The notes: generated from the letters alone by a model not told the origin. 64,000 nt of DNA from Smithella sp. (GCA_049517435.1 JBEKRZ010000002.1:77659-141658); one strand, 5' to 3'. Counted from the stretch's first letter, positions 2,729 through 64,000 are shown. A program made the numbers and translations.

Positions 2729-4783
2729 TTAAAATGTAAATGAAAGCCCTGTCTTAAATGTAATCCCGGGCATGGGATAATAAGTATTGGCACTCCAAGG
2801 AGCCCCATCCACGCCAAAAGAAGAATATTTCACGTTGGCCAGATTCTCCGCACCAAAGAAAGCTGTCACTTTAACTCTTTCAATAGGTGGCTTATAAGAA
2901 AGATAAATGTTGAGGAGAGTGTAGCTATCTAATTTTTCAGCAGTGTTATTGTAATCCTGAGATAAAAAGCAATCCCCCACATAGCGCATTTCAGGACGTA
3001 ACATCAGATTATAAGGAAGATAAATCTCCAAGCCTAGGGTTGCCATCCGGTTTGGTACGAGCCACAACTCCTTTTTATTATAAAGTCCATCCTCATAAGT
3101 GGCTTTATGATAGGTGAAGTTACCATACAGCAGAGCATATTTTTCCCACGAATAAGAAAGAGAAACTTCCACACCGTCATGGCGCGTACTTCCGGTATTT
3201 TGATTGTAACCCGTCGGGAAAATTCCCACATACTGGATTTCATCCTCCATATCAGTTCTAAACAGGGTCAGTCCTATCTTTAGATTATTCAGTGGATAGA
3301 ATTCAGTTCCTACCTCGGTACTGATACCTTTTTCTTTGTCCAGATTCGTTAAAAATCCTCCACCGGCACCATTGAAAGAGGCTACTTCATCGATAAAAGG
3401 AATGCGATAAACGGTCGCGTACTTAGCAAATACTTTTGATTTCTTCCCCCAAAGCCAGGTCAAACCTGCTTCATAAGCTTCGGCGTTGTAAGTATTTTTC
3501 ATATCCGTAAAATTGTTGCCAGGAGTATAGAAATCTACATTGGAACCTTTAATAGATGTCTGTTCAAACCGGTAACCGCCGCTCAAAATTAGATTTTTCA
3601 AAAGACTGAATTCATCGCGGATATAGCATCCCATACTCTCCCGCGTAAAATCCGCCGTGCTCGATTTTGCCGTTCTCTCCCGATCGCTGTAAAAATCCTT
3701 TTTGTAAGGTTCGTTATAATAATCAAAACCCATTATCACTTTGTTATCAAATCCGAATATTTCTTTGACCAGAATATATTTCGGTGTAATGCCGTACGTG
3801 TCGGCGTTTATGTCGGAATAGAGATACCATGACGCCATATTCATTTGCAGATCTTTTTTACCATATAGAAAATTGATTTCCAGTTGTCCCCATGATCCCC
3901 AGAAAGATTTAATGCCTAAATTGACGTTGGTATATTTATCCGAACCGTCATCGTCGGAATGGGCAGGAGACCAGGGACCGGCTGATGGCTGATACTGCCG
4001 TGGATCTTGATCAATCTGTTCCTTCGTCAGGGCGCCGGGCATTTGATAGTCCGTTTTATTAAACGAGACACCCAGCGAAACGTTCAGCAAGTCGCTGGCG
4101 GAATATCCCAAATCAAAGCCGCCGCCCTGCGCGGAATATTTCGAACGCTCCCGATAACCGAAGTTAAAATTATTTTCTCCGTTCACTGCGTATGTCCATT
4201 TACCTATAGCGCCTGTTACGACAGCCCGTTCATCGTTGAGGCCATAACTCCCCGCAAGAACAGATACGTTAAATTTTGGTTCACCCTTACCTTTCTTGGT
4301 GATGATGTTAATAACACCGCCGATGGCCGCGTCGCCGTAAAGGACACTGCTCGGTCCCCGGACAATCTCGATTCTTTCTATAGTATCGACCGGTATTTCC
4401 AGCCAATTTATTGAAGACATATCCGTCCGGTTTAAACGGCGGCCATCCAGCATAACCAGGGTTTTTCCGTAGGGATTATCACCGCCGCTGCCGCGCATAT
4501 CGATATATGCCTGCGAGGAATTACCGCTGGAAGTGCGAAATTGTATACTTTCAAGTTTATCCAACACTTCAACGACAGTTGTTGCTCCTGACTTTTCGAT
4601 TTCTTCGGCTGTGATGACACTAACGTTCGCCGGAGTCTTGCGGGTTTCCTGGGTGTCACGTGTTGCGGTAACAACAACTTCTCCCATCGTGACAATTGCG
4701 TCGCTATCTTTTTTATCTTGAGCTTGTACCGGTGAAAAAATAACTACGGAAAACAACAGAACTAAAAATAAGACTTTCTTCAT
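2729..4783 (-). CDS. btuB: TonB-dependent outer-membrane receptor, BtuB-like by context
   Basis: It has the signal peptide MKKVLFLVLLFSVVIFSPVQAQ, a TonB box-like IVTMGEVVVTAT, a plug domain (VEVLDKL...IEIVRGPSSVLYGDAAIGGVINIITK) and a C-terminal ...GLSFTF. The start was chosen at the ATG at 4783, which is preceded by AAAGGAGAAG. A cobalamin riboswitch lies directly upstream. Confidence 0.8.
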   Translation of the reverse strand: MKKVLFLVLLFSVVIFSPVQAQDKKDSDAIVTMGEVVVTATRDTQETRKTPANVSVITAEEIEKSGATTVVEVLDKLESIQFRTSSGNSSQAYIDMRGSGGDNPYGKTLVMLDGRRLNRTDMSSINWLEIPVDTIERIEIVRGPSSVLYGDAAIGGVINIITKKGKGEPKFNVSVLAGSYGLNDERAVVTGAIGKWTYAVNGENNFNFGYRERSKYSAQGGGFDLGYSASDLLNVSLGVSFNKTDYQMPGALTKEQIDQDPRQYQPSAGPWSPAHSDDDGSDKYTNVNLGIKSFWGSWGQLEINFLYGKKDLQMNMASWYLYSDINADTYGITPKYILVKEIFGFDNKVIMGFDYYNEPYKKDFYSDRERTAKSSTADFTRESMGCYIRDEFSLLKNLILSGGYRFEQTSIKGSNVDFYTPGNNFTDMKNTYNAEAYEAGLTWLWGKKSKVFAKYATVYRIPFIDEVASFNGAGGGFLTNLDKEKGISTEVGTEFYPLNNLKIGLTLFRTDMEDEIQYVGIFPTGYNQNTGSTRHDGVEVSLSYSWEKYALLYGNFTYHKATYEDGLYNKKELWLVPNRMATLGLEIYLPYNLMLRPEMRYVGDCFLSQDYNNTAEKLDSYTLLNIYLSYKPPIERVKVTAFFGAENLANVKYSSFGVDGAPWSANTYYPMPGITFKTGLSFTF

Positions 4784-4841
4784 GGAGCTTCTCCTTTCCC
4801 CCTCGGGATTAAAGTAAGTTAGACTCACCATAAAGTTTCCT

Positions 4842-4972
4842 GGCTTGCGGCGGCCTACTTTCCACTCCTTCCCAATGCCGGAGCATCAGTGGTTTGATGT
4901 GGATTTCGTTCCGCTTACAGTTGCGGGGCAGCGCCGGACTTTGACCGGCTTCCTTTATTGGCAGTCATCTAC
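4842..4972 (-). promoter_or_regulatory. cobalamin (B12) riboswitch
   Basis: The minus strand reads ...CAATAAAGGAAGCCGGTCAAAGTCCGGCGCTGCCCCGCAACTGTAAGCGG...AAACCACTGATGCTCCGGCATTGGGAAGGAGTGG.... This matches the conserved core (AAnAGGGAA-CCGGTnAAAnTCCGG-GCTGCCCCGCAACTGTAAG) and the CCACTG...GGGAAGG elements. It lies in the 5' leader of the TonB-dependent receptor gene. Confidence 0.85.
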
Positions 4973-5874: not shown

Positions 5875-6924
5875 TTAACGGGCCTTCCTTTTTAAAAGAA
5901 AGATGAAATACGGGGCACCGCAAAGCGCCGTGATAACTCCAACCGGCAATTCAGCCGGCGCGAAAACAACTCTGGCGATAGTATCAGCAACAATTAAAAA
6001 TGACGCGCCGAACAAAGCAGAAACAGGCAACAGCAAACGGTGATCGGAACCAAAAATAAGGCGCATAAAGTGCGGCACCATAATTCCGACAAAGCCGATG
6101 ATGCCGGCCAAAGATACCGCCACGGCTGTAATCAGCGAGGTTACAATCAGAAGCCATTGTTTTGTTCTCTCTACATTGACACCTAATTGCAGAGCTGTAT
6201 CTTCACCCTGCACGATCAAGTTCAGTTTTCGCGCCTGTGCGTAAAGCAACACAAAACCGGCGATAAGACAAAAAGCGGCCACGCAAATTTCTTTGATTGA
6301 TGCCCGCGAGAGGTCACCCATCAGCCAAAACGTGATGCTGTGCAACTCCATGCTATTGACAATAGATAAGAAAAAGAGAATCGCTGCGGAAAAAAAGGCA
6401 TTCACGACAACGCCGGAAAGTAGGAGCGAATTATCCAGGAGAGGCCCTCTGGTTCCTCCTGCAACAACAAATACCAGAAAAACTGTGGCCAGTGCTCCCC
6501 CAAAAGCCAGCAGCGGCACACCTAAATAAAAAGAACTTGCGCCGAGGAGGATGCCTATAATTGCGCCCAATGCCGAGCCGCCCGATATGCCCAGTACGTA
6601 AGGATCAGCCAACGGATTGCGCAGAATCGCTTGAAAAATAACTCCTCCCAAAGAAAGCGCGGCGCCGACAATTCCCGCAAAAATAATACGTGGCAGGCGC
6701 ACGGAAAATAAAATTAATTCTTCCTGGGAAGTTATGGAGAAATCTCCCGTAAGGGATTTTGCCAGATAGCGCAATACATGACTAAAATCGATATGGACAC
6801 TACCGGTCAAAAGGGAACCGGCGCTAATGACCAAAAAGATTAAAATCATAAGGGCGCTTATTTGCAGCACTCGCGATAAGGTAACACGACGGTAAATGGG
6901 CGTCTTCCTCCTAGTGAGTCCCAA
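5875..6924 (-). CDS. FecCD-family ABC permease (BtuC/FepD-like)
   Basis: The 349-aa polytopic protein has typical FecCD features (RLPRIIFAGIVGAALSLGGVIFQAILRNPLADPYVLGISGG...). The exact start is uncertain; the ORF opens with a TTG. Confidence 0.85.
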   Translation of the reverse strand: MGLTRRKTPIYRRVTLSRVLQISALMILIFLVISAGSLLTGSVHIDFSHVLRYLAKSLTGDFSITSQEELILFSVRLPRIIFAGIVGAALSLGGVIFQAILRNPLADPYVLGISGGSALGAIIGILLGASSFYLGVPLLAFGGALATVFLVFVVAGGTRGPLLDNSLLLSGVVVNAFFSAAILFFLSIVNSMELHSITFWLMGDLSRASIKEICVAAFCLIAGFVLLYAQARKLNLIVQGEDTALQLGVNVERTKQWLLIVTSLITAVAVSLAGIIGFVGIMVPHFMRLIFGSDHRLLLPVSALFGASFLIVADTIARVVFAPAELPVGVITALCGAPYFIFLLKRKAR

Positions 6925-7102
6925 ATTTCAGAAGCGTAGCGCACTGAAATTTGTTGGACGAACTATCCAATAGCCAAAGGCTATTGGAAATTATCCCAGC
7001 CGTTGTGGCGGGTGAGATATCTAGCAAAGCCGGGTTTATACCCATTAGGAACTTATATATTCTCTTTGATGTGTTTTCCACTACAAAAAGCGCCGGACTT
7101 GG

Positions 7103-16396: not shown

Positions 16397-16558
16397 TTAG
16401 CTTATAAACAACATTTCCCAGAACTTGGGCAATGGCCATAATTCGTCATCGACCAGATTTTCCAGCTCGTCAGCATATTCACGAAGTTCATCCATTTTGG
16501 GTTTGACTTTGCTGCAGAAAGCATCCGCTTTTATCGATTCATACCAGATTAAAGACGC
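16397..16558 (-). pseudogene. probable relic of the 3' end of a type III glutamine synthetase gene (glnN-like)
   Basis: The minus-strand frame, opening right after TAA TAG, reads ASLIWYESIKADAFCSKVKPKMDELREYADELENLVDDELWPLPKFWEMLFIS*. From memory, the ...DDELWPLPK(Y/F)xEMLF ending resembles the extreme C-terminus of GS type III. Only about 53 codons remain. Confidence 0.4.
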
Positions 16559-16592
16559 CTATTAATTTTGAAAATAATTTTTCATTTGACAC

Positions 16593-16622
16593 GCAAGCCA
16601 CCGGCTTTAGCCGATGGCTTGC
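16593..16622 (-). terminator. hairpin downstream of glnA (terminator candidate)
   Basis: The stem is GCAAGCCAYCGGC-(taaa)-GCCGRTGGCTTGC, about 13 bp including wobble pairs, 14 nt after the glnA stop. The T tract is not immediately adjacent. Confidence 0.45.
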
Positions 16623-16635
16623 GAAGGTTACTCTA

Positions 16636-18060
16636 TTAGATATCGTAATAAAGCATGAATTCATAAGGGTGCGGCCGTAAGTCCATCGCCTCAACCTCAT
16701 TCACCATCTTATAATCAATCCATGTATCAATGACATCTTGGGTGAATACATCTCCCTTAAGCAGGAATGCATGATCCTTTTTCAGGGCATTAAGAGCTTC
16801 ACGCAGAGAACCGGGCGTCTTCAATACTTTTTTTGCATCTTCCGGTGGAAGATCATAGATGTTCTTATCTAAAGGTTTACCTGGATCGATCTTATTCTGG
16901 ATGCCGTCCACCGCTGCCATCATAATCGCTGAAAATGCCAGGTAAGGATTACATGCCGGATCAGGACAGCGGAATTCCAGGCGTTTTGACTTAGGTGACG
17001 TGCTGTACATGGGTATACGCACTGCCGCGCTACGATTGCGCTTTGAATATGCCAAGTTGACCGGGGCTTCATAACCTGGTACCAAGCGTTTATAACTGTT
17101 GGTTGTCGGACTTGTCAACGCCAACAACGCGGGAGCATGTTTAAGGATTCCTCCGATAGCATACATGGCCATCTGAGAAAGCCCGGCATATCCGTCGCCG
17201 GCAAATAAATTTTTGTCTTTCTTCCATAAAGATATATGGACATGCATACCGCTACCATTATCGCCGAATAGCGGTTTAGGCATAAATGTCAATGTTTTAT
17301 TAAACTTTTTGGCAGTGTTCTTGAGTATATATTTATATTTCAGAAGATTATCCGCCATTTCTACCAGGGGTGAAAACTTCATATCAATCTCTGCCTGTCC
17401 GGCGGTAGCTACTTCATGATGCTGAGCCTCAACTTCAATTCCAATGCTTTCAAGTGTTAAAGCCATTTCACTGCGCAAGTCCATCTGGCTGTCGGTAGGC
17501 GGTACAGGAAAATACCCTTCTTTATGGCGAACTTTATAGCCCAGATTTGGATTTTCAACCCTACCACTATTCCAGATGCCTTCCACGCTGTCAATATGAT
17601 AATAGCCTTCATTAGTTTTCTGATCATAACGTATATCATCGAAGATAAAGAATTCTGCCTCTGGCCCAAAATATGCCGTATCGGCCAAGCCAAGCTTCTT
17701 AAGATAATTTTCTGCTTTTCTCGCTATGTTGCGGGGGTCTCTGGTGTAATCGGCACCGGTAATAGGATCCTGAATGTTGCATATCATAACCAAGGTCTTA
17801 ACGGCAGTAAAGGGGTCAATAAATGCAGTGGAAGGCACCGGCATTATAAGCATATCAGACTCATTAATTGCCTGCCAGCCGCGAATTGATGAACCGTCAA
17901 ATCCCAATCCTTCGGTAAACACATTTTCATCAATCTGACTTATAGGATAGCTGCAATGCTGCCAAATTCCGGGGAAATCCATGAATCGCAGATCAACTAT
18001 CCTCACCCTTTCCTTCTTAATTAATTCAAGAACATCTTTTGGTGTTTTTATTTCAGCCAT
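16636..18060 (-). CDS. glnA: glutamine synthetase type I
   Basis: The 474-aa product contains [44 protein letters not shown] and the adenylylation-loop-like [10 protein letters not shown]. Confidence 0.97.
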
Positions 18061-18189
18061 GATACTTTATCTCCTTTATGCTAAAATTTGTTATTCAATA
18101 ATTATATCTCTATAAATATTTTATGCGCTGATATGCCGGATCAAAATTCTATAACCATATCTTTTACTATAAAAAGACACCAATTTAAT

Positions 18190-52830: not shown

Positions 52831-53328
52831 TCATTCTTTATCTAATACATATGACATGAAAGTAACCTGAAAAGGTAAATGGGAAAATTCCTTGGTTTCT
52901 CCCTCAATAAACCCAATTCCCCTGTACCAGTTCTTGAGTTCAGTTTGCTCTGCAATAATTCCTATATTGACGCGATGAGCTCCAAGACTTTTTGCCTTTG
53001 ACAATACTTGAGTCACCAAAGCTTTCCCGAAACCTCGCCGCTGCTGATCGGGAAGAACCGCGAGGCGCTCCAGATAACAAACGCCGGGTTTTGCCTGTTC
53101 TAAAGCAACACATCCCACGACAACATTTTCATTTTCCGCAACGGAATACGTAACGCCGCGTTCCATATCTTTTTGAATCCATTCCTTTGTGCAATTGGAC
53201 GGATGGCGCGGCGCGTTCTCTTGATTCAAGCTAAAGCGCAAAGCTACATCCTGAAATGATCTGTGTATAGTTTCAACTATGACCTCGATATCTTTTTGTG
53301 TACAAACACGAATTTTAGGACTCAACAT
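52831..53328 (-). CDS. GNAT-family N-acetyltransferase
   Basis: The 165-aa product has the acetyl-CoA motif A LAVLPDQQRRGFGKALV and a typical GNAT layout. Confidence 0.85.
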   Translation of the reverse strand: MLSPKIRVCTQKDIEVIVETIHRSFQDVALRFSLNQENAPRHPSNCTKEWIQKDMERGVTYSVAENENVVVGCVALEQAKPGVCYLERLAVLPDQQRRGFGKALVTQVLSKAKSLGAHRVNIGIIAEQTELKNWYRGIGFIEGETKEFSHLPFQVTFMSYVLDKE

Positions 53329-53408
53329 TGGATATTACTTTTCTACTGCTAATGAAAAGCTCATAGGGAGAAGCACGTGCCGATCCCGTGCAGCGGCTTA
53401 TTACCAGT

Positions 53409-53810
53409 TTATTTCATCTGCATTCCAGGTGCATCATCTGGGCGAATTTCGAAACCATTACTCAAATAGAATCTAGCCCGGCCCGTTGCTGCAAACAACC
53501 ACACTCTTCGAAATGAATGTTTCTTACACTTTTCTTTTAGCATCTCAAGTATTGAGGTGCCAATACCTTGATTCTGATATTTGGGATCAACGATCATGTC
53601 ACAGACAAACGCGTAAAGAGCCCCATCTGATACTAGACGACCAATGCCAATCAGTGATTGATCATCATAGGCTGAAATCCAATACCAAGAATTATCAATT
53701 GCTGCTTGTAATACTTCATCGGATACTGAAGCAGAGGGTGCCCATCCTGTGCTTTCATACAGCTTCTTATATCCAGAAAGGGTTGGCTTAGAATTATCGT
53801 ATTTGATCAT
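53409..53810 (-). CDS. GNAT-family N-acetyltransferase
   Basis: The 133-aa product has motif A MIVDPKYQNQGIGTSIL and C-terminal FYLSNGF. Confidence 0.85.
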   Translation of the reverse strand: MIKYDNSKPTLSGYKKLYESTGWAPSASVSDEVLQAAIDNSWYWISAYDDQSLIGIGRLVSDGALYAFVCDMIVDPKYQNQGIGTSILEMLKEKCKKHSFRRVWLFAATGRARFYLSNGFEIRPDDAPGMQMK

Positions 53811-53977
53811 TATCTATTTCCTGGTAACAAATTATTCTCAGGTTTCTGTCTATCCCCACAAATTAATGTTTTTAAAAAACACCCTTTCAATAGCAACTTA
53901 CGATTTTTCTATTTGTGGTTTAATCTAACGAATTATGGAAATCTATTAAAATATTAACGATTTGGATTTATAAACAC

Positions 53978-54017: not shown

Positions 54018-54097
54018 GTCATACCGGACTTGATCCGGTATCCAGAAATCATTAATAATACTGGATTCCGTGTCGCGCTTTGCTTGCACGGAATGAC
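54018..54097. repeat. inverted pair of REP-like hairpins
   Basis: GTCATaccggacttgatccggtaTCCAG (54018-54045) and CTGGAttccgtg...cacggaATGAC (54061-54097) face each other. The GTCAT...TCCAG frame is the same as at 57552-57578. Confidence 0.6.
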
Positions 54098-57551: not shown

Positions 57552-57578
57552 GTCATTCCCGCGAAGGCGGGAATCCAG
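57552..57578. repeat. REP-like hairpin GTCATTCCCGCGAAGGCGGGAATCCAG
   Basis: The stem ATTCCCGC/GCGGGAAT with a GAAG loop lies 14 nt after the hisD stop. Read antisense it produces the spurious peptide WIPAFAGMT seen in ORF 57515..57973. Confidence 0.7.
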
Positions 57579-57638: not shown

Positions 57639-58412
57639 ATGCAAAAATCAAAAATCAACAAATATCCTTCGGTAAAAACCATCAGCGACGCGCAGCGCGT
57701 CGGCATGGTCAAAGAAATCTTTTCGACCATTACCGGCAAGTATGATTTTTTAAACCATTTGTTGAGCTTGCGCCGCGATATTGCCTGGCGGCGTTTCGCG
57801 ATTAAAAAAATGGTTTTCTTTAAGACCAACAGATTCCTTGATGTTGCCTGCGGCACCGGAGATTTATCGATTAACGCCTGCCTGAAGCATCGGCAGATAA
57901 AAGCTGTCGGCGTTGATTTTGTCTTTCCAATGGTGGAGGTGGGAAAAAATAAGATAGAGAAAAAAGGTCTCACCGGTCAGTTGAATTTTATGCAAGGCAA
58001 TGCCTTGAGACTTCCCTTTCACGACAATACTTTTGACGTTACCGGCATAGCTTTCGGAATTAGAAATATTCCCGATAGAACGAAAGCGCTCCGAGAAATG
58101 TTGCGTGTTACCGTGCCGGGAGGACAAATAATGGTGCTGGAAATGACTTTTATTGAGAACCGCTTTTTCAAATTATTTTATTATATTTATTTGAACTACC
58201 TGCTTCCCCTGATGGCCAAGGTATTTTCCAAAAACTCCGCCGCGTATTACTACCTTGCCGATTCCATCATGCACTTTCCGTCACCGGATGCATTCGCAAA
58301 AATCATGCAGGATACCGGCATGTCCGGAGTTGAAATATATCCCCGCACTTTCGGCATTACCTGCCTGTATGTCGGGAAGAAGCCGGCAGAAGCTAATTTA
58401 AAAGCAAGTTGA
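57639..58412 (+). CDS. ubiE: demethylmenaquinone / ubiquinone C-methyltransferase
   Basis: The 257-aa product contains VKEIFSTITGKYDFLNHLLSLRRDIAWRR, the SAM motif LDVACGTGDL, and GIAFGIRNIPD. Confidence 0.9.
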   Translation: MQKSKINKYPSVKTISDAQRVGMVKEIFSTITGKYDFLNHLLSLRRDIAWRRFAIKKMVFFKTNRFLDVACGTGDLSINACLKHRQIKAVGVDFVFPMVEVGKNKIEKKGLTGQLNFMQGNALRLPFHDNTFDVTGIAFGIRNIPDRTKALREMLRVTVPGGQIMVLEMTFIENRFFKLFYYIYLNYLLPLMAKVFSKNSAAYYYLADSIMHFPSPDAFAKIMQDTGMSGVEIYPRTFGITCLYVGKKPAEANLKAS

Positions 58413-58666
58413 AAATCAAGCAATAGTTCGCGTTTTTCCTGCGAACGGCGGAACTAAGCGGTGACATGAACATGCAGAAAGCGAAGCTTCCAGTGCATGT
58501 GAAATGCCAACCGACTTCAGTGATTTGTTGGCGCCGCGCGGATCAGCGCGCAAGGCCTAATTATATTTATATTTATTAACTACAATATCAGAACTCATTT
58601 AAATTGTCAGACGCCAATAAGGAGCTCAAAAACGGTAGATTAGCTTTTTAGGCATCTCTAAATTTA

Positions 58667-59917
58667 TCAATTCGACTTCTCAGAAGTAAGGACATTAACG
58701 TCTCGTGACATAGTATCTATTAGTTTTTCAACTATTTCCCAATTCTTCATTGAATAATTTCCAAGCATACCCATAGTAACAGTATCCTTGAAAGTGGAAA
58801 AACTTAACTGTATAGCTGGTTGATTCTTTATAGATGTTAGCATGTACGCATCAATAATCTTATGACCGCTGAAACATAGTTTTTTATCGTCAATAATACC
58901 AAGGTTTGATATTGATATACCTAAAGATTGAATCTCTCTGGAAAGTATTCTATCAAACATATTTCGTGGGAGTAATTCAAATAATGAGTTCATGATTAAT
59001 ACATTCTTAATGCCAGGGAAGTGCGATTTTATTTTTCTCATATACTTACTTATTTCTTGAGATAAATCAAAAAAACTTTGGTTTTTATTGACTATTGTCA
59101 TACTTTCCATTGAAGAAAAATTACCGAATTGTGAAACAGGGTATTTGTTTATATATCTTCTTAGATCGAACATTATTTGTATCGTAACCCTGTCTATTTT
59201 TTCATGTTCCAGACAAAATATTGCGTGAAAGAAAAGTGTAAGAATAAAATCATTAATAGTAATCCCAGATTTTTTGCAAATACCTTTTATGATCTGGAAT
59301 TCTACTACATCGATCTTGAATAGTCCCAGTCGGGTTTCTATATCATCATTTTTATCGCTCAATATTTCTATTTTTGTTCTATTATATGTCTTCCTGAATA
59401 GAGAAAGAAACTTCTGTTTTGCTGATATATTTTTGAACAAGGTATTCATCCGACGATCCAGATTTATCTTGTCAATAGAATCATTTGAGTAGATTTTCGA
59501 CAACAAGTAGAGATACAATTTTAATCCAGAACCATCAAATACCATATGATTTACGGTAATAATAGCGACATCATTAGCATCTTGACATATTATTTGAACA
59601 AATATCTGTGGTCCATTATTTCCAGGTATTTTTTTCAGATACTCAACGATATTTTCCTTTGATATGTTATTAGTATTACGAACACAAAAGAAATCATCAT
59701 CTGTGTAATCACTCTCTTCCCAAAGCACTTTACTTCCTGTCTGCGAATACTTGCACCTAAGAACAGGGACATAGTCAAAGGAAATATTTACAGATTTTTT
59801 GAACCTATCTGTATCTATATGTTCCTTAAATATAATAATTCCCCTTACCTGATGATCGTTCACTACGTCCTGGAGTTTGATATATTCATCCAATAATTCT
59901 ACTGGATATTTATTCAT
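58667..59917 (-). CDS. cassette ORF: condensation/HxxxDG-type acyltransferase-like protein
   Basis: The 416-aa, very AT-rich ORF carries the motif ITVNHMVFDGSG, which resembles the HHxxxDG catalytic motif of the condensation/WS-DGAT/PapA5-type acyltransferase superfamily. No closer assignment is possible. Confidence 0.5.
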   Translation of the reverse strand: MNKYPVELLDEYIKLQDVVNDHQVRGIIIFKEHIDTDRFKKSVNISFDYVPVLRCKYSQTGSKVLWEESDYTDDDFFCVRNTNNISKENIVEYLKKIPGNNGPQIFVQIICQDANDVAIITVNHMVFDGSGLKLYLYLLSKIYSNDSIDKINLDRRMNTLFKNISAKQKFLSLFRKTYNRTKIEILSDKNDDIETRLGLFKIDVVEFQIIKGICKKSGITINDFILTLFFHAIFCLEHEKIDRVTIQIMFDLRRYINKYPVSQFGNFSSMESMTIVNKNQSFFDLSQEISKYMRKIKSHFPGIKNVLIMNSLFELLPRNMFDRILSREIQSLGISISNLGIIDDKKLCFSGHKIIDAYMLTSIKNQPAIQLSFSTFKDTVTMGMLGNYSMKNWEIVEKLIDTMSRDVNVLTSEKSN

Positions 59918-59936
59918 AACTTATTTCCTTTTGGAT

Positions 59937-59995
59937 GCCTAACGCCAGAACTGTGCGGCGCAGTTTTTTTCGTCCGCACCAGTGATAGGTTATGT
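59937..59995 (-). repeat. attC site of the hydrolase cassette
   Basis: The minus strand reads ACATAAC-ctatcactggtgcggacgaaaaaaactgcgccgcacagttctggc-GTTAGGC. The inner arms CTGTGCGG/CCGCAC(C)AG pair with one extra base. Confidence 0.75.
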
Positions 59996-60035
59996 AACTT
60001 CAATATGTTGATTTAATATCTTATATTTGTTTACA

Positions 60036-60923
60036 TTAAATGTTGATTTGCACAGCATGCTTAGAAATGGCGTCTACTATTTCTGCCCAAACCCCTTTTG
60101 GCATGTCATGTCCCATTCCATCAATTATCAATAATTTTGCTCCCGGTATTACTCGAGCTGTATCTTTTCCTCCTTCGACCGGTATCAGCGGATCATCAGC
60201 CCCATGAATTACAAGTGTTGGAACCTTAATAGATGAAAGCAACGGTCTTCGATCGCCATTGGCAATAAGAGCTATGTTTTGACGTGCCATTCCCTGTGGG
60301 TAGTATGAACGATCATAGCTCTTCTCTAGGAAAGTTCGAGCTCTCTTTTCCTCAAATGGAAATCCGGGACTCCAAATCTTCCGCCATACATTCATATTGT
60401 GTTCAATATATGCTTCGCGTTCCTCTGGTGCAGGCGCGAGAACAGCAGCTATTGTTTCCGGTTTCGCCTGCGGAAGATCAGGATTTCCTGTGGTCGACAT
60501 TATTGAAGTGAGACTCAGGACATGTTTTGGATGTCGATAGGAGATAACCTGGGCTATCATACCGCCCATTGAAGCGCCGCAAATATGTGCCTTCTCAATG
60601 CCTAAAGCATTAAGTAAACCAACGGCGTCATCCGCCATATCATCAAGAGAATATGCTGATTCCACAGGCTTACCTTCCATTGCAGCTTTGATTGCAGCCG
60701 GAAAGTCAGGAATTCCTGCTTCTTCAAATTTTGTCGAAAGACCTGCATCCCGGTTGTCAAACCGAATCACAAAGTAACCTTTTTTTGCTAATAACTCGCA
60801 GAATTCGACATCCCAAAAATAAATCTGAGCACCATTACCTGCAACTAATAATAATGCAGAGAATGAACTATCACCGAAAGTATCATATTCAATTTGGATT
60901 CCATTAGCTGTCACATTAGGCAT
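60036..60923 (-). CDS. cassette ORF: alpha/beta-fold hydrolase
   Basis: The 295-aa product has HG-type LLVAGNG, the nucleophile elbow GASMGG, and late Asp/His residues (HGADDPLIP, GMGHD). Confidence 0.85.
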   Translation of the reverse strand: MPNVTANGIQIEYDTFGDSSFSALLLVAGNGAQIYFWDVEFCELLAKKGYFVIRFDNRDAGLSTKFEEAGIPDFPAAIKAAMEGKPVESAYSLDDMADDAVGLLNALGIEKAHICGASMGGMIAQVISYRHPKHVLSLTSIMSTTGNPDLPQAKPETIAAVLAPAPEEREAYIEHNMNVWRKIWSPGFPFEEKRARTFLEKSYDRSYYPQGMARQNIALIANGDRRPLLSSIKVPTLVIHGADDPLIPVEGGKDTARVIPGAKLLIIDGMGHDMPKGVWAEIVDAISKHAVQINI

Positions 60924-60974
60924 TGCTTACACCTTTTCTAAGTTAATATCATGAATTACTATATTTATCTTGAC

Positions 60975-61042
60975 CCACAACTTTCGAGTTAATGTGCGGG
61001 ACCCGGCGTGCCGGGACACGTCCCTTGAGCGATGCGTTAGTT
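60975..61042 (-). repeat. divergent, GC-rich attC-like site of the DUF1353 cassette
   Basis: The minus strand reads AACTAAC-gcatcgctcaagggacgtgtcccggcacgccgggtcccgcacattaactcgaaa-GTTGTGG. It has internal GGGAC/GTCCC and CCGG/CCGG stems. The R boxes match the consensus poorly and pair only over AAC/GTT. Confidence 0.45.
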
Positions 61043-61043
61043 C

Positions 61044-61697
61044 TCACCGCCCCCACACCAAAGAGCTAATTCCTGACTTGACGGCAATTTCCTTATCAAG
61101 CGCCTTGCATGCTAGCCCGATCTGGTCGCTGTCCGCAGGAGTTTGTTCCGAGACATTTAATTCCCGAAGTGAAGTACGCAGATCAGGCCAAAGTGTGGTG
61201 GGCTTGAGCAAACCGGCATTAGGTGACATGTATCTTGACGGGATAACTCGCACCAGGCCATTCTGCTTGTCCGCCTTGTTGTCGGCCCACGCCTTATCTC
61301 CTGCCAGTTTCACCGCGACGTAGAAACGTGACTGCGTGGCTTGATCAACTCCAGCATCTCGCATAGTTTGGTAGATGATCTTGTCAGCTTCTTTCCGCTC
61401 ACACACCTGCCGCCAATAGAGGTAATCATGAAGAATCGCCGCGGATAGATATTTGCCGAAAGGTGGATACACAGCCCATATCTCACGGGGAGTGCTGGCC
61501 AGGTCGGTGACGAATCCACGCGGCACGACTATCGATACGTGTGTATGGTCGTCTAACTCAGCCACGAACTCAATGTCTTCCCAGACGATCCACTGTGTGC
61601 CATCCCCAAATGGACTTAGTAGCGGGGCGTGGGTAGGCGCAATTGTTGTACACGCGGAAAGACAGACAAACATGATAAACACAAAAAGTCGTTTCAT
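61044..61697 (-). CDS. cassette ORF: DUF1353-like lipoprotein
   Basis: It has a signal/lipobox MKRLFVFIMFVCLSAC and the core VVPRGFVTDLASTPREIWAVYPPFGKYLSAAILHDYLY, typical of DUF1353. GC is about 50%, higher than the neighbours. The start is the ATG at 61697, preceded by GAAGGAG. Confidence 0.7.
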   Translation of the reverse strand: MKRLFVFIMFVCLSACTTIAPTHAPLLSPFGDGTQWIVWEDIEFVAELDDHTHVSIVVPRGFVTDLASTPREIWAVYPPFGKYLSAAILHDYLYWRQVCERKEADKIIYQTMRDAGVDQATQSRFYVAVKLAGDKAWADNKADKQNGLVRVIPSRYMSPNAGLLKPTTLWPDLRTSLRELNVSEQTPADSDQIGLACKALDKEIAVKSGISSLVWGR

Positions 61698-61726
61698 ATG
61701 AGACTCCTTCAACTGTTACACATAAG

Positions 61727-61782
61727 ACTTAACGAAAAAATTAGCCGGAGCGTCGCGATCGACTGTATTGCCTTTGTTATGT
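61727..61782 (-). repeat. attC site of the thioesterase cassette
   Basis: The minus strand reads ACATAAC-aaaggcaatacagtcgatcgcgacgctccggctaattttttc-GTTAAGT. It is closely related to the attCs at 62259-62322 and 62786-62841. Confidence 0.8.
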
Positions 61783-61803
61783 AAAATTTTCGCCTGTGTT
61801 CCT

Positions 61804-62238
61804 TTATTCTCTATTCAAAACAAAAAGACTGGTAGATCCTTTTGCAACAATCTGTTTTTTTTCGTTAAGTATTGTTCCAGACATATAAATTAAACTACCA
61901 CCTTTATTTACTATCTCAGCGATAACTTGTACTTTTTCACCAACAAATGCTTTACCAATAAAGTCTATATTCAAGCTTGTCGTAATAGCTGAGACTTCAC
62001 TTCCCGGATGATTAGCTAATATTCCAAGAATATCACATAACATTGCTGCTCTAATACTGCCATGAAGAATACCAAGCGGATCTGCCATCTCCGGCCGCAC
62101 CTCAAATTCGCATTCCATTCTGTTATCATCTATAAAAATCAATTTTGGGTTAAGCCATGTCGTTACCGGGTTTATGATCTTGCCGCCCACTGATGATAAA
62201 TATTTGCCTTCAAAAGTTTTTAATTCAAGGATATCCAT
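61804..62238 (-). CDS. cassette ORF: PaaI/4HBT-type hotdog-fold thioesterase
   Basis: The 144-aa product has GILHGSIRAAMLCD (the GxxHGG-like motif) and a long central helix plus sheet pattern. Confidence 0.75.
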   Translation of the reverse strand: MDILELKTFEGKYLSSVGGKIINPVTTWLNPKLIFIDDNRMECEFEVRPEMADPLGILHGSIRAAMLCDILGILANHPGSEVSAITTSLNIDFIGKAFVGEKVQVIAEIVNKGGSLIYMSGTILNEKKQIVAKGSTSLFVLNRE

Positions 62239-62258
62239 CTTTTCCTTTCTCTTGATCT

Positions 62259-62322
62259 ACATAACGAAAAAATCAGCGGGAGGCGGGCGTAGCCTGCCTC
62301 CCGCTGTATTGCTTTGTTAGGT
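62259..62322 (-). repeat. attC site of the HEPN-like cassette
   Basis: The minus strand reads ACCTAAC-aaagcaatacagcgggaggcaggctacgcccgcctcccgctgattttttc-GTTATGT. It has a 10-bp GC stem, CAGCGGGAGG/CCTCCCGCTG. The upstream ORF's TAA stop lies inside ACC-TAA-C. Confidence 0.8.
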
Positions 62323-62772
62323 GTCTTTGTCTAAGTATCTTTCCCTCACAAATTTGGAAAGGATTTCCGCTGTCTGGAGTAATTCCTGCTGTCTGAAGGA
62401 AAATCCATTATTCTCGTGATGATATCTTGCATCTACAAAGTGACTGTTGTTACGTTCAAGAATATCGAGAATGTCTGGCTTGCGACTACTGAGTGAGGTC
62501 TGCACTTCCGCACTACATTTCTGGAATAGATCAAGAAGTTTGTGTCCAGCGTCGGCTTCGCCATTCTCCGCAAGGAGAATGTACTTGAGGAAAAGCTCGC
62601 ATGAGAATGATGCGCAGACTGTTCCCGGAACAGTCTGCATCTCGACACCTGCTTCAACCTTGCAACTGTTGAGACAACGGTCTGCAGCCTTGAGGAAGCT
62701 TCCGGCAAAATCAAAGGAGCCAAGATGGATAATCTTCCGGGGTTCGTTCTGTTTTTTGTTGTTATCAGTCAT
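62317..62772 (-). CDS. cassette ORF: HEPN-like helical protein
   Basis: In the 151-aa product, FSCELFLKYILLAENGEADAGHKLLDLFQK...HFVDARYHHEN follows the E-x-x-LK...H-x-L-x-x-L...RY layout of HEPN domains. No partner (MNT-like) gene lies in the same cassette. Confidence 0.45.
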   Translation of the reverse strand: MTDNNKKQNEPRKIIHLGSFDFAGSFLKAADRCLNSCKVEAGVEMQTVPGTVCASFSCELFLKYILLAENGEADAGHKLLDLFQKCSAEVQTSLSSRKPDILDILERNNSHFVDARYHHENNGFSFRQQELLQTAEILSKFVRERYLDKDT

Positions 62773-62785
62773 CTGTCTGATTGTC

Positions 62786-62841
62786 GCCTAACGAAAAAAT
62801 CAGCCGGAGCGTAGCGATCGGCTGGAGTGACTTTGTTAGGC
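62786..62841 (-). repeat. attC site of the nuclease-like cassette
   Basis: The minus strand reads GCCTAAC-aaagtcactccagccgatcgctacgctccggctgattttttc-GTTAGGC. The 7-bp R boxes are perfectly complementary, the inner stem is CAGCCG/CGGCTG, and the bulges are asymmetric. Confidence 0.85.
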
Positions 62842-62909
62842 TTTCATATAAAAGTGTTACGCATATACCCAGAACAATCTGTTACCTATCTTCCCGTTCG
62901 TTCATACGT

Positions 62910-63911
62910 CTATTCTTTATTTTTTGGTTTTGCCTTATTTATTTTAAATTCATTCAATTTTTTTGTTAACTCTTCCATTCTTTTTTTGTTTTTTCTTTCT
63001 CTGTTAAATGTTTTTTCGGTAGGCTCGACAATCTCATTCAAATATTCGAACAGTGATTTGAAACCTACGTTTCCCTTTGAAAAGTGAATTACCGCGAAAG
63101 CTCCCGGACAATAATTTTTGGCTATTACAGATAATACAAATCCGATATCTTCGTTAAATGACTTTAATTTCTTGTTCAAATAGTCTTTACTGTATTTATC
63201 AATAAACCGGTAAAATATTTCTATGTTATATTTTTCTAAATCTTTACCAATAGGAGATTTAAGAATTAAACATTCAGCTTCCGTTGATACATCGGATAAA
63301 TCATTTGATTGTTTAATTTGCTCAATTGTAACGTTTTCATTCAGTCTAAATAAATTTGCGGTGGTAACAATAATTGGAATATGATAAAAGATTATTTCTG
63401 ACGAACCAAGTAACCTTTCTATTTGATGTTCCATCCCATCCAATATTTTTTCAGCCATTGCATAGCTTAATTGATTCATTGCTTGAGAAATAGATTTAGG
63501 ATTTTGCCCTTCTGAATTGATCTCTATCCCTTTCCCACATAATGGTGCTAAAGGTTCATAATCCAATTCAAAGAATTTCTTTTTCTGGGTAAAATGGTCG
63601 TTTGGATTTATAAATGAATATGAATTAATTTCACTGATTCCACCATACGATTCAGGGGTAAAAACCCAATTGGTTGATTGGTCCCTGTATTTACATTCAA
63701 TCATTAGATCAAAGAAATGACCACCTTTAATAAATGAAGCGTCAATATCGTATGAAAACTCATTTACAATTTCACTCTCGTCTCTTCTCAAATAAGTGTA
63801 TTCATAATTTCCAACACAACCATATTTATCAAGCAATGTTTTAACTTCATATTCCAAGGGAATACTTGACTTAAGTAAAAAGTCTTTCCATTTGTTTAAT
63901 TTATTGCTCAT
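62910..63911 (-). CDS. cassette ORF: PD-(D/E)xK nuclease-like N-terminal domain plus an unknown C-terminal domain
   Basis: The 333-aa, AT-rich ORF has SYDIDASFIKGGHFFDLMIECKYRD, which gives a D...(D/E)xK arrangement (D-x13-E-C-K). The C-terminal ~200 aa are unassigned and end in a Lys-rich tail. Confidence 0.5.
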   Translation of the reverse strand: MSNKLNKWKDFLLKSSIPLEYEVKTLLDKYGCVGNYEYTYLRRDESEIVNEFSYDIDASFIKGGHFFDLMIECKYRDQSTNWVFTPESYGGISEINSYSFINPNDHFTQKKKFFELDYEPLAPLCGKGIEINSEGQNPKSISQAMNQLSYAMAEKILDGMEHQIERLLGSSEIIFYHIPIIVTTANLFRLNENVTIEQIKQSNDLSDVSTEAECLILKSPIGKDLEKYNIEIFYRFIDKYSKDYLNKKLKSFNEDIGFVLSVIAKNYCPGAFAVIHFSKGNVGFKSLFEYLNEIVEPTEKTFNRERKNKKRMEELTKKLNEFKINKAKPKNKE

Positions 63912-63923
63912 AGTATTTCATGT

Positions 63924-64000
63924 GTCCTAACAATTAATATACGTATTCGTTTATATACCGGTTTGAAACAAAATCTGTTTTTGGAATGATGTATTTCTAC
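63924..64000 (-). repeat. next attC (R' box GTTAGGA), incomplete or unresolved at the window edge
   Basis: The minus strand reads ...ttcaaaccggtatataaacgaatacgtatattaatt-GTTAGGA, 12 nt upstream of the ATG at 63911. The left boundary (R'' box) could not be placed with confidence. Confidence 0.4.

Follow-up and report, generated by a model that had tools for sequence, protein, structure and literature searches.

A 64,000-nucleotide (nt) stretch of a Smithella sp. contig (GCA_049517435.1, JBEKRZ010000002.1:77659-141658), referred to here in its full length as the window, ends in an array of integron-type gene cassettes. Six minus-strand open reading frames (ORFs), with attC-type sites in between, lie between ubiE (57639-58412) and the right-hand edge of the window. 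The array consists of six single-ORF units, five of them with attC-type sites, joined at the AA|C crossover point of integron recombination. It is very probably what remains of a sedentary chromosomal integron in a Smithella-like (Syntrophales) bacterium after the integrase gene was lost and attI and the cassettes were kept. The original prediction, an integron-type array beside ubiE with no integrase in view, is upheld by a shared attC family, by the position of the crossover, by the homology of the attI region and by the absence of an integron integrase (IntI) within 10 kb.

Crossover points and the attC family

The canonical attC crossover falls at AA|C of the bottom-strand AAC, and the distal bases of the R' box belong to the next cassette. 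The three distal R' bases should therefore pair with the next cassette's own R'' box. In 40 adjacent site pairs, pairing of this triplet within the cassette came to 2.62 of 3 bases, with 29 of the 40 fully paired. The controls gave 1.55 for the two boxes of the same site, 1.55 for the reciprocal pairing and 1.49 for random pairs (permutation p<1e-4). This pattern is not predicted by repetitive extragenic palindromic (REP) elements or by terminators. The crossover can also be seen in a comparison with L114, one of the loci fetched from other assemblies. The alpha/beta hydrolase (abhydrolase) cassette of the window, cassette E, recurs in L114 with 96% nucleotide identity behind a different attC. 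The identity runs to ...TTGACCCACAAC (60981) and ends exactly after CCACAAC; beyond this breakpoint the window reads TTTCGAGTTAATG... and L114 has an attC of the family described below.

Three sites, named here by their first positions (61727, 62259 and 62786), are members of one attC family, as their likeness had led the original prediction to suggest. A 21-nt family core occurs three times in the window versus 0 expected, and covariance models of the family, R1 and R2, give these sites 53-79 bits on the + strand versus 10-23 bits on the - strand. The family consensus is RYYTAACGAAAAAATCAGCCGGAGCGTAGCGATCGGCTG[K]ATTG..TTTGTTARRY, and its TAACGAAAAAATCAGCCGGAGCGTAGCGATCGGCTGKATTG..TTTGTTA part is conserved in more than 100 contigs. 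A scan of metagenome contigs for the shared motif found at least 120 stretches, and a second scan, over GTDB genomes at one per species, gave 34 matches, mostly in metagenome-assembled genomes (MAGs) named Syntrophaceae, Smithella, Smithellaceae or 'delta proteobacterium'. On the + strand of the window the fold of the family comprises an R box, then an unpaired spacer and an L box bulged on its 3' arm, and finally a variable terminal loop, into which some copies have an additional stem inserted. Of the two arms on the + strand, the 3' one exceeds the other by 2 nt; the base that bulges out is T in 41 cases, G in 28, C in 5 and A in 2. The extrahelical bases of a bottom-strand attC lie on the R''-L'' arm. 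Because the bulged base is on the 3' (R''-L'') arm of the + strand, the + strand is taken to be the recombinogenic bottom strand and the minus strand, which is also that of the ORFs, the top strand. The polarity of the family is consistent: among 94 independent sites far enough from contig ends, 87 have a co-oriented ORF of at least 60 amino acids (aa) ending at most 150 nt from R'' (median gap, 3 nt), and three have an opposite-strand ORF only.

Outside the window, family sites are tied to integrases by association. A tblastn search with IntI1 found full-length homologues (44-50% identity) in L064, L068, L073, L119, L041, L130, L135 and L158. The four integrases tested against NCBIfam (L064, L119, L130 and L158) matched TIGR02249, 'integron integrase', with 420-436 bits, the curated cut-off being 265; those of L073, L041, L068 and L135 were recognized by tblastn only. 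At the integrase loci, family sites are arrayed at about 400-1300 nt spacing, and the arrays begin at a divergent intI in L064, L119, L073, L041, L130 and L158. Family sites thus associated stand beside TIGR02249 proteins in L064, L119, L130/L164 and L158.

The core boxes alone are not sufficient to recognize a site. Bare TAAC-N41-61-GTTA pairs number 17 in the window versus 14.2 +/- 3.8 in simulated sequence, which is the chance level. Significance comes instead from the family core, the covariance scores, the presence of one site per gap and the comparative evidence. A hand-written structural scan for AAC/GTT boxes and a bulged stem was discarded as unspecific: it returned 37 matches window-wide and missed three real sites. 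Rfam, which holds no attC family, gave no matches in the array region. Elsewhere in the window it identified a cobalamin riboswitch (RF00174, 87 bits) on the minus strand at 4833-4955.

In positions 1-58400 of the window the family has no copy except a degenerate one at 53347-53406, between two small minus-strand GNAT acetyltransferase genes (52831-53328 and 53409-53810). Its R box is mutated to TAAT...ATTA, and model R2 scores it at 27 bits (E 3e-4). The sequence GGTAAC|AAATTATT is found at 53811-53830, 12 nt upstream of the second GNAT gene start. This region, beside prmC, looks like a second and older remnant of two cassettes.

The attI junction and the same locus in relatives

The right-hand end of the array has two features:

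63925-63931, minus strand: R' box TCCTAAC (top strand GTTAGGA), junction of the first cassette and attI
63932-64000, no strand assigned: putative attI and former intI upstream spacer, running to about 64089 beyond the window, with whole-length homology to the L064 spacer

The junction reads TCCTAAC|AATTAATATACG (63925-63931|63932), and YYAAC|AATTAATATACG recurs at other loci, with its right side conserved and its left side different at each locus. Loci in which this junction adjoins the PIF1 helicase gene or the region upstream of it are the window, L024, L037, L114, L131, L133, L150, L165, L169 and L170. Junction and spacer also occur in L064 and L173, at other genomic loci, and there they lead into intI. 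In alignment A3 the window's spacer, which reaches from the junction as far as the helicase ATG, is homologous throughout to the spacer that separates attI from intI in L064; homology to the L173 spacer was judged by eye. Because the homology extends over the whole spacer, the window appears to retain attI and the former intI upstream region, with the helicase ATG in the place of the intI ATG. The integrase class that accompanies this attI type (L064 7924-9279, L173 about 1310-2497, P0121-P0240) is usually about 430-445 aa long; about 100 aa of this form an N-terminal extension that precedes the part alignable with the 337-aa IntI1. The other integrase class found at the window's locus has 322-345 aa. 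In L150 (1472-1680), an attI-type spacer lies inside an array and is followed after about 130 nt by another family attC and cassettes rather than by intI or the helicase gene, which points to two arrays having fused.

Past the window edge the 206-kb contig continues with a 160-nt spacer, a + strand gene for a 536-aa PIF1/AAA_30/WYL helicase, tRNA-Gly(CCC) and rimP-nusA-infB, and the same join at 64.0-64.1 kb is present in five other assemblies. Searches by tblastn with five IntI queries, covering the window and 10 kb on either side (L001, L005), gave no match even at E<=10, and in the same sequences no IntI-like coding remnant was detected at this threshold. Since attC sites are clustered here and intI is missing not only within 4 kb but also within 10 kb, the element is a CALIN (a cluster of attC sites lacking an integron-integrase). 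The original prediction had foreseen several of these features: a further R' box at the right end, an attI there, which is now placed at 63931|63932 by homology to L064 and L173, and a CALIN as the alternative to a complete integron. Its other option, an intI just beyond position 64000, is refuted: the helicase, tRNA-Gly and rimP-nusA-infB genes were found there.

The locus itself is fixed, extending from hisD-ubiE to PIF1-rimP-nusA in the window, L165 and L170 and from PIF1 to rimP in L164, L131 and L133. Five relatives, given with the aa identity of their PIF1 helicase to that of the window, show what can stand before this gene:

L164 (86%): cassettes, intI (344 aa), an IS200-like gene, PIF1, rimP-nusA-infB
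L158 (76%): intI ending 8 nt before the PIF1 start
L167 (83%): a 109-aa intI remnant directly before PIF1
L165 (88%): prmC-murA-hisD-ubiE, seven other cassettes, PIF1, rimP; without intI
L170 (79%): hisD-ubiE, six other cassettes, PIF1; without intI

The L167 remnant has the integrase N-terminus fused to its C-terminus, the catalytic core being deleted. In L165 the flanks are 84-91% identical to the window at the nucleotide level (88% for ubiE, behind which L165 has a different array), and no sequence is shared between the flanks. Such complete turnover of cassettes at the locus in related genomes is what the original prediction required of an integron. In L114 (PIF1 96% identical), four different cassettes stand between attI and the common abhydrolase cassette; the two arrays thus differ on the attI side, where an integron would be expected to change. 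The more distant complete genome CP113000 (PIF1 78%) has the helicase gene elsewhere and no array. In L059 (reverse complement 2977-3371; hisD 77% identical at the nucleotide level), an array directly follows hisD and a 114-aa ORF, without ubiE in between, which means that the distal limit of the locus is variable. In L164, the minus-strand ORF at 6435-7000, which lies between intI and the helicase gene, resembles an IS200-type transposase by eye.

The PIF1/WYL helicase is conserved in Smithella, Smithellaceae and Syntrophaceae MAGs. In L005 it occupies 16452-18062 (equivalent to about 64090-65700 of the window) and has a WYL domain fused C-terminally to PIF1/AAA_30; among PADLOC models, it matches RecD-like and WYL ones. 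The idea that PIF1 helicases are linked to integron integrases in general was considered and rejected: PIF1 adjoins intI in this lineage only and is absent beside intI in L064, L119, L073, L041, L068, L135 and L171-L173. A genomic island targeted to the tRNA gene was likewise dismissed, tRNA-Gly being 2 kb off, beyond the helicase gene, and facing away from the array.

Individual sites and cassette cargo

The sites of the array, and the remnants at its distal end, are as follows:

58440-58533, minus strand: attC-like hairpin and last site of the array, 94 nt, bottom strand TGCGAAC...GTTGGCG, 28 nt past the ubiE stop
58534-58646, minus strand: non-coding body homologous to an ORF-less cassette, with a degenerate junction to cassette F
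58647-58653, minus strand: TTTAGGC, R''-like remnant of cassette F's own attC, without a foldable partner, 13 nt past the ORF stop
59937-59995, minus strand: attC of cassette E, bottom strand GCCTAAC-6-ACTGTGCGG...CCGCAC[C]AGT-5-GTTATGT
60975-61042, minus strand: probable attC of cassette D, CCACAAC-6-GTTAA...TT[G]AGC-5-GTTAGTT, classical box layout and weak hairpin
61727-61782, minus strand: attC of cassette C, family member, 68/65 bits with models R1/R2 on the + strand
62259-62322, minus strand: attC of cassette B, family member, 56.5/52.7 bits, with a long GC-rich variable stem
62786-62841, minus strand: attC of cassette A, near the family consensus, 76.6/79.4 bits with models R1/R2 on the + strand

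The five sites from 59937 to 62841 have the coordinates originally predicted, and each occupies the gap that follows the 3' end of one minus-strand ORF; counted over the whole array, one co-oriented site is found 3' of a single ORF in five of the six gaps. Inverse core boxes R' and R'', with AAC...GTT at the ends, are present in these five sites and in 58440-58533. The bounds RYYYAAC and GTTRRRY that had been proposed for them fit site 62786 exactly on both sides and are loose for the others; TAAC...GTTA is found in four of the five sites, and only AAC...GTT is invariant. Also borne out were ORF starts 14-52 nt from the preceding box and a stop codon inside an R'' box, the TAA (62317-62319) of the HEPN ORF in site 62259-62322. 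The further expectation that the bottom strands fold with extrahelical bases held in part. Sites 62259 (-23 kcal/mol, z -7.4) and 62786 (z -2.5) are the only ones to fold clearly better than shuffled sequences, and bulges are found at 62259 (an extrahelical T on the 3' arm of the + strand) and 59937 (a C on the 3' arm of the L-box stem); the other three sites fold like shuffled sequences. On the - strand, site 62786 scores 15 bits.

Site 61727 has two non-pairs in its L stem and fold z-scores of +1.0 and -0.5; it is probably decaying. Site 60975 folds with a z of about 0 to -1.1, and its box layout and bulged G were assigned by inspection of the sequence. It is accepted as an attC, though probably a weak one, because of its classical layout and because the L114 breakpoint falls inside it. 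A BLAST search with sites 59937 and 60975 against all fetched loci gave no homologues.

The hairpin at 58440-58533 was not part of the original prediction. Its L box is of the same type as in site 59937 (ACT.../...[C]AGT GAT), and its minimum free energy fold closes the R box. A homologue in L089, 84% identical, lies within an array, 12 nt from the start codon of the next cassette. Together with the non-coding body at 58534-58646, the hairpin is 75% identical to an ORF-less L089 unit of about 203 nt (hairpin plus about 110 nt) whose limits are CGCTAA|C and GTTGGCG. A GC-rich hairpin (GCGCCGCGCGGATCAGCGCGC...) at 58529-58557 overlaps the R'' end of the site and is kept in L089. In the window, the ORF-less unit abuts cassette F without a proper site in between. 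TTTAGGC matches in six of seven bases the GTTAGGC expected as the complement of the 5' end of cassette F, GCCTAA|C (59937-59943). Since TTTAGGC is all that is left where the R'' of cassette F is expected, the distal end of the array appears to be degenerate.

The genes of the array, and the gene that bounds it, are:

57639-58412, + strand: ubiE/menG methyltransferase (PF01209, 212 bits), a core gene and the distal bound of the array
58667-59917, minus strand: cassette F, 416 aa, weak Condensation/WS_DGAT_C acyltransferase-like match, GC 0.31 (0.308)
60036-60923, minus strand: cassette E, 295-aa alpha/beta hydrolase (PF00561, 98 bits)
61044-61712, minus strand: cassette D, DUF1353 protein of 217-222 aa (PF07087, 83 bits), GC 0.52
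61804-62238, minus strand: cassette C, 144-aa 4HBT thioesterase (PF03061)
62317-62772, minus strand: cassette B, 151-aa HEPN-domain protein (PF05168), stop codon within R''
62910-63911, minus strand: cassette A, 333 aa, GC 0.30 (0.298), the first cassette of the array

This is typical uncharacterised cargo: a HEPN protein, a thioesterase, a DUF1353 protein, a hydrolase, an acyltransferase-like protein and a 333-aa orphan. The cassette A protein has no Pfam match, and PADLOC defence models gave no match among the cassette proteins. The jumps in GC content between cassettes that had been pointed out were reproduced (0.308 at 58667-59917 and 0.298 at 62910-63911 versus 0.52 at 61044-61697; 0.43 for the whole window). 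Cassette A is called as two ORFs, of 218 and 77 aa, in the strain variants L006 and L007, and both variants have a G->A change at 63680 that is predicted to create a premature stop, an apparent nonsense allele. In strain variants the HEPN gene at first seemed truncated, but this was a difference in gene calling, with zero nucleotide change.

Read on the coding strand, a family site is a stem with ATTTTTTCG after it and resembles an intrinsic terminator. It might be, as a speculation, that such sites insulate the cassettes from each other. A promoter and terminator scan gave no signal above shuffled sequences.

Origin of the array and comparison with known systems

If the array is the remnant of an integron, its cassettes would have been captured singly, each by IntI-mediated recombination between attI and an attC folded from the bottom strand, and the newest cassette would be the one adjoining attI. 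The intI ORF would have been deleted later, so that the helicase gene now follows the region once upstream of intI. With no IntI encoded in cis, the array would be static unless an integrase were supplied in trans. The broken stem pairs at 61727, the lack of a foldable attC for cassette F and the apparent nonsense allele of cassette A suggest that the array is in early decay. Cassette arrays that lack an integrase are common, and where they came from can seldom be told. Here the relatives make such an origin legible, with a complete integron, an internally deleted intI and an intI gone with attI kept.

Several observations weigh against this account. The intI-bearing PIF1 loci (L164, L158 and L167) have another attI type, AAC|AGTGTAATA with TTTTCCACTTATTA repeats, and their integrases, 85-87% identical to each other, are only 49% identical to the L064-type integrase that goes with the window's attI. 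From the two attI types and the 49% identity of the integrase classes, it would appear that two integron platforms have occupied this locus. Among the loci examined none combines the window's attI type with intI and PIF1, and we infer, rather than observe, the deletion of intI in situ. Three of the five sites (61727, 60975 and 59937) fold no better than shuffled sequences. Site 60975 is not scored by the family covariance models, and the scores of 59937 (R2, 16.9 bits, E 0.13; + strand, both ends placed exactly) and 58440-58533 (R2, 12 bits, E 2.4, + strand) are weak. Models R1 and R2 were themselves built from this attC family in IntI-linked arrays. Finally, no convincing cassette promoter (Pc) reading into the cassettes was found: the search gave one weak minus-strand match in the spacer, TAAACA-18-AATAAT, and a total number of matches below the shuffle expectation.

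The alternatives nevertheless fare worse. The orientation of the genes and the R' box at 63925-63931 both point past the window edge, as they would if a complete integron had its intI and attI just beyond it, but the 10 kb that follow hold the spacer, the helicase gene, tRNA-Gly and rimP-nusA-infB and are negative for IntI at E<=10, making this reading extremely improbable. Generic REP-like or terminator palindromes in an ordinary genomic island, unrelated to integrons, would agree with the terminator-like appearance of the family sites, with the chance frequency of bare TAAC...GTTA pairs and with the presence in core spacers (54018 and 57552) of REP-like hairpins of another family. The attC family, however, is missing from the 58 kb of core sequence apart from the one degenerate copy between the GNAT genes, and elsewhere it is arrayed beside TIGR02249 integrases; breakpoints at the AA|C crossover and pairing of R boxes within cassettes are not features that REP elements predict. 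We therefore give this explanation almost no weight, and palindromes scattered through core regions, which had been named as the finding that would count against an integron, are not what the window contains. The REP-like hairpins in question (GTCATNCC...GGNATCC; 54018-54043 and 57552-57576) occur in two copies versus 0 expected and are unrelated to the attC family.

A CALIN could also have formed in another way, through a rearrangement or homologous replacement that carried a block of attI and cassettes to the helicase gene, or through use of a native helicase promoter, represented by the spacer, as a secondary site. Rearrangement, insertion sequence (IS) activity and secondary-site insertion have been listed as further routes by which CALIN arise (Cury et al. 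2016, PMC4889954). None of the approximately ten loci with the window's attI type beside PIF1 has intI, and the loci that do have intI at this position carry another attI type and another IntI class. Yet the spacer is homologous over its full length to the attI-intI spacers of L064 and L173 at other loci, which would be hard to explain for a native helicase promoter, and intI lies directly upstream of PIF1 in three relatives, in one of them in mid-decay. On balance such an origin is unlikely. Somewhat less doubtful, and put forward tentatively, is a refinement of the remnant integron: a split integron, in which cassettes kept entering or leaving this attI after the loss of intI through a 435-aa L064-type IntI acting in trans. 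It is suggested by at least ten integrase-less attI-PIF1 lineages, each with a different first cassette and all joined at exactly ..AAC|AATTAATATACG; Syntrophales genomes encode L064-type IntI at other loci. Should this attI still be in use in trans, it would make the locus a natural case for testing the reach of an integrase to remote arrays.

Within the literature searched, no paper was found that links integrons with Smithella or Syntrophaceae, syntrophic bacteria of peat, sediments and digesters, in which an abundant and highly conserved attC family and two integrase classes are recorded here. The closest resemblances to known sites and systems are as follows. In the classical 59-base element of class 1 cassettes, R' (..AAC) is followed by 6 nt, L', L'' with one extra base, 5 nt and R'' (GTT..). 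Sites 59937 and 60975 share this layout on the bottom strand, as judged by inspection. The GTTAA/TT[G]AGC of site 60975 is close to the GTTAAGC/GCTT[G]AAC of the aadA1 attC; the window's sites have no sequence homology to such elements, and the cargo is different.

Within a lineage, the attC sites of sedentary chromosomal integrons are highly similar; the VCR repeats of the Vibrio cholerae superintegron are an example. The array resembles these integrons in its highly similar, lineage-specific attC family and in its constant chromosomal locus. For sedentary chromosomal integrons more than 19 attC sites are required (PMC4889954). In contrast to such long arrays, there are six cassettes here, only three of the five to six sites belong to the family, and no integrase is present.

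The CALIN, defined with IntegronFinder as an attC cluster without an integron-integrase (Cury et al. 2016, PMC4889954), fits the array in its present state. It has at least two attC sites, single-ORF cassettes mostly of uncharacterised function, no intI within 4 or 10 kb and a typical size, 83% of CALIN having fewer than six attC sites (PMC4889954). A recognizable intI pseudogene was found near only 15 of 279 CALIN, and most of their origins are unclear (PMC4889954). Unlike most CALIN, the array appears to have kept the attI junction and the former intI upstream spacer, and among its relatives intI ranges from intact through internally deleted to absent.

The closest parallel is the integron downstream of ilvD in Xanthomonas, a fixed locus of ancestral acquisition with repeated lineage-specific inactivation of intI and strain-specific uncharacterised cassettes (Colombi et al. 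2025, 10.1101/2025.06.18.660453). The two share a fixed chromosomal locus, repeated inactivation or loss of intI and differing cassette arrays. They differ in lineage (Desulfobacterota/Syntrophales here), in locus (hisD-ubiE to PIF1-tRNA-Gly-rimP) and in attC family. In the window, moreover, the intI ORF is fully gone rather than inactivated, and in the relatives two IntI classes and two attI types are found at one locus.

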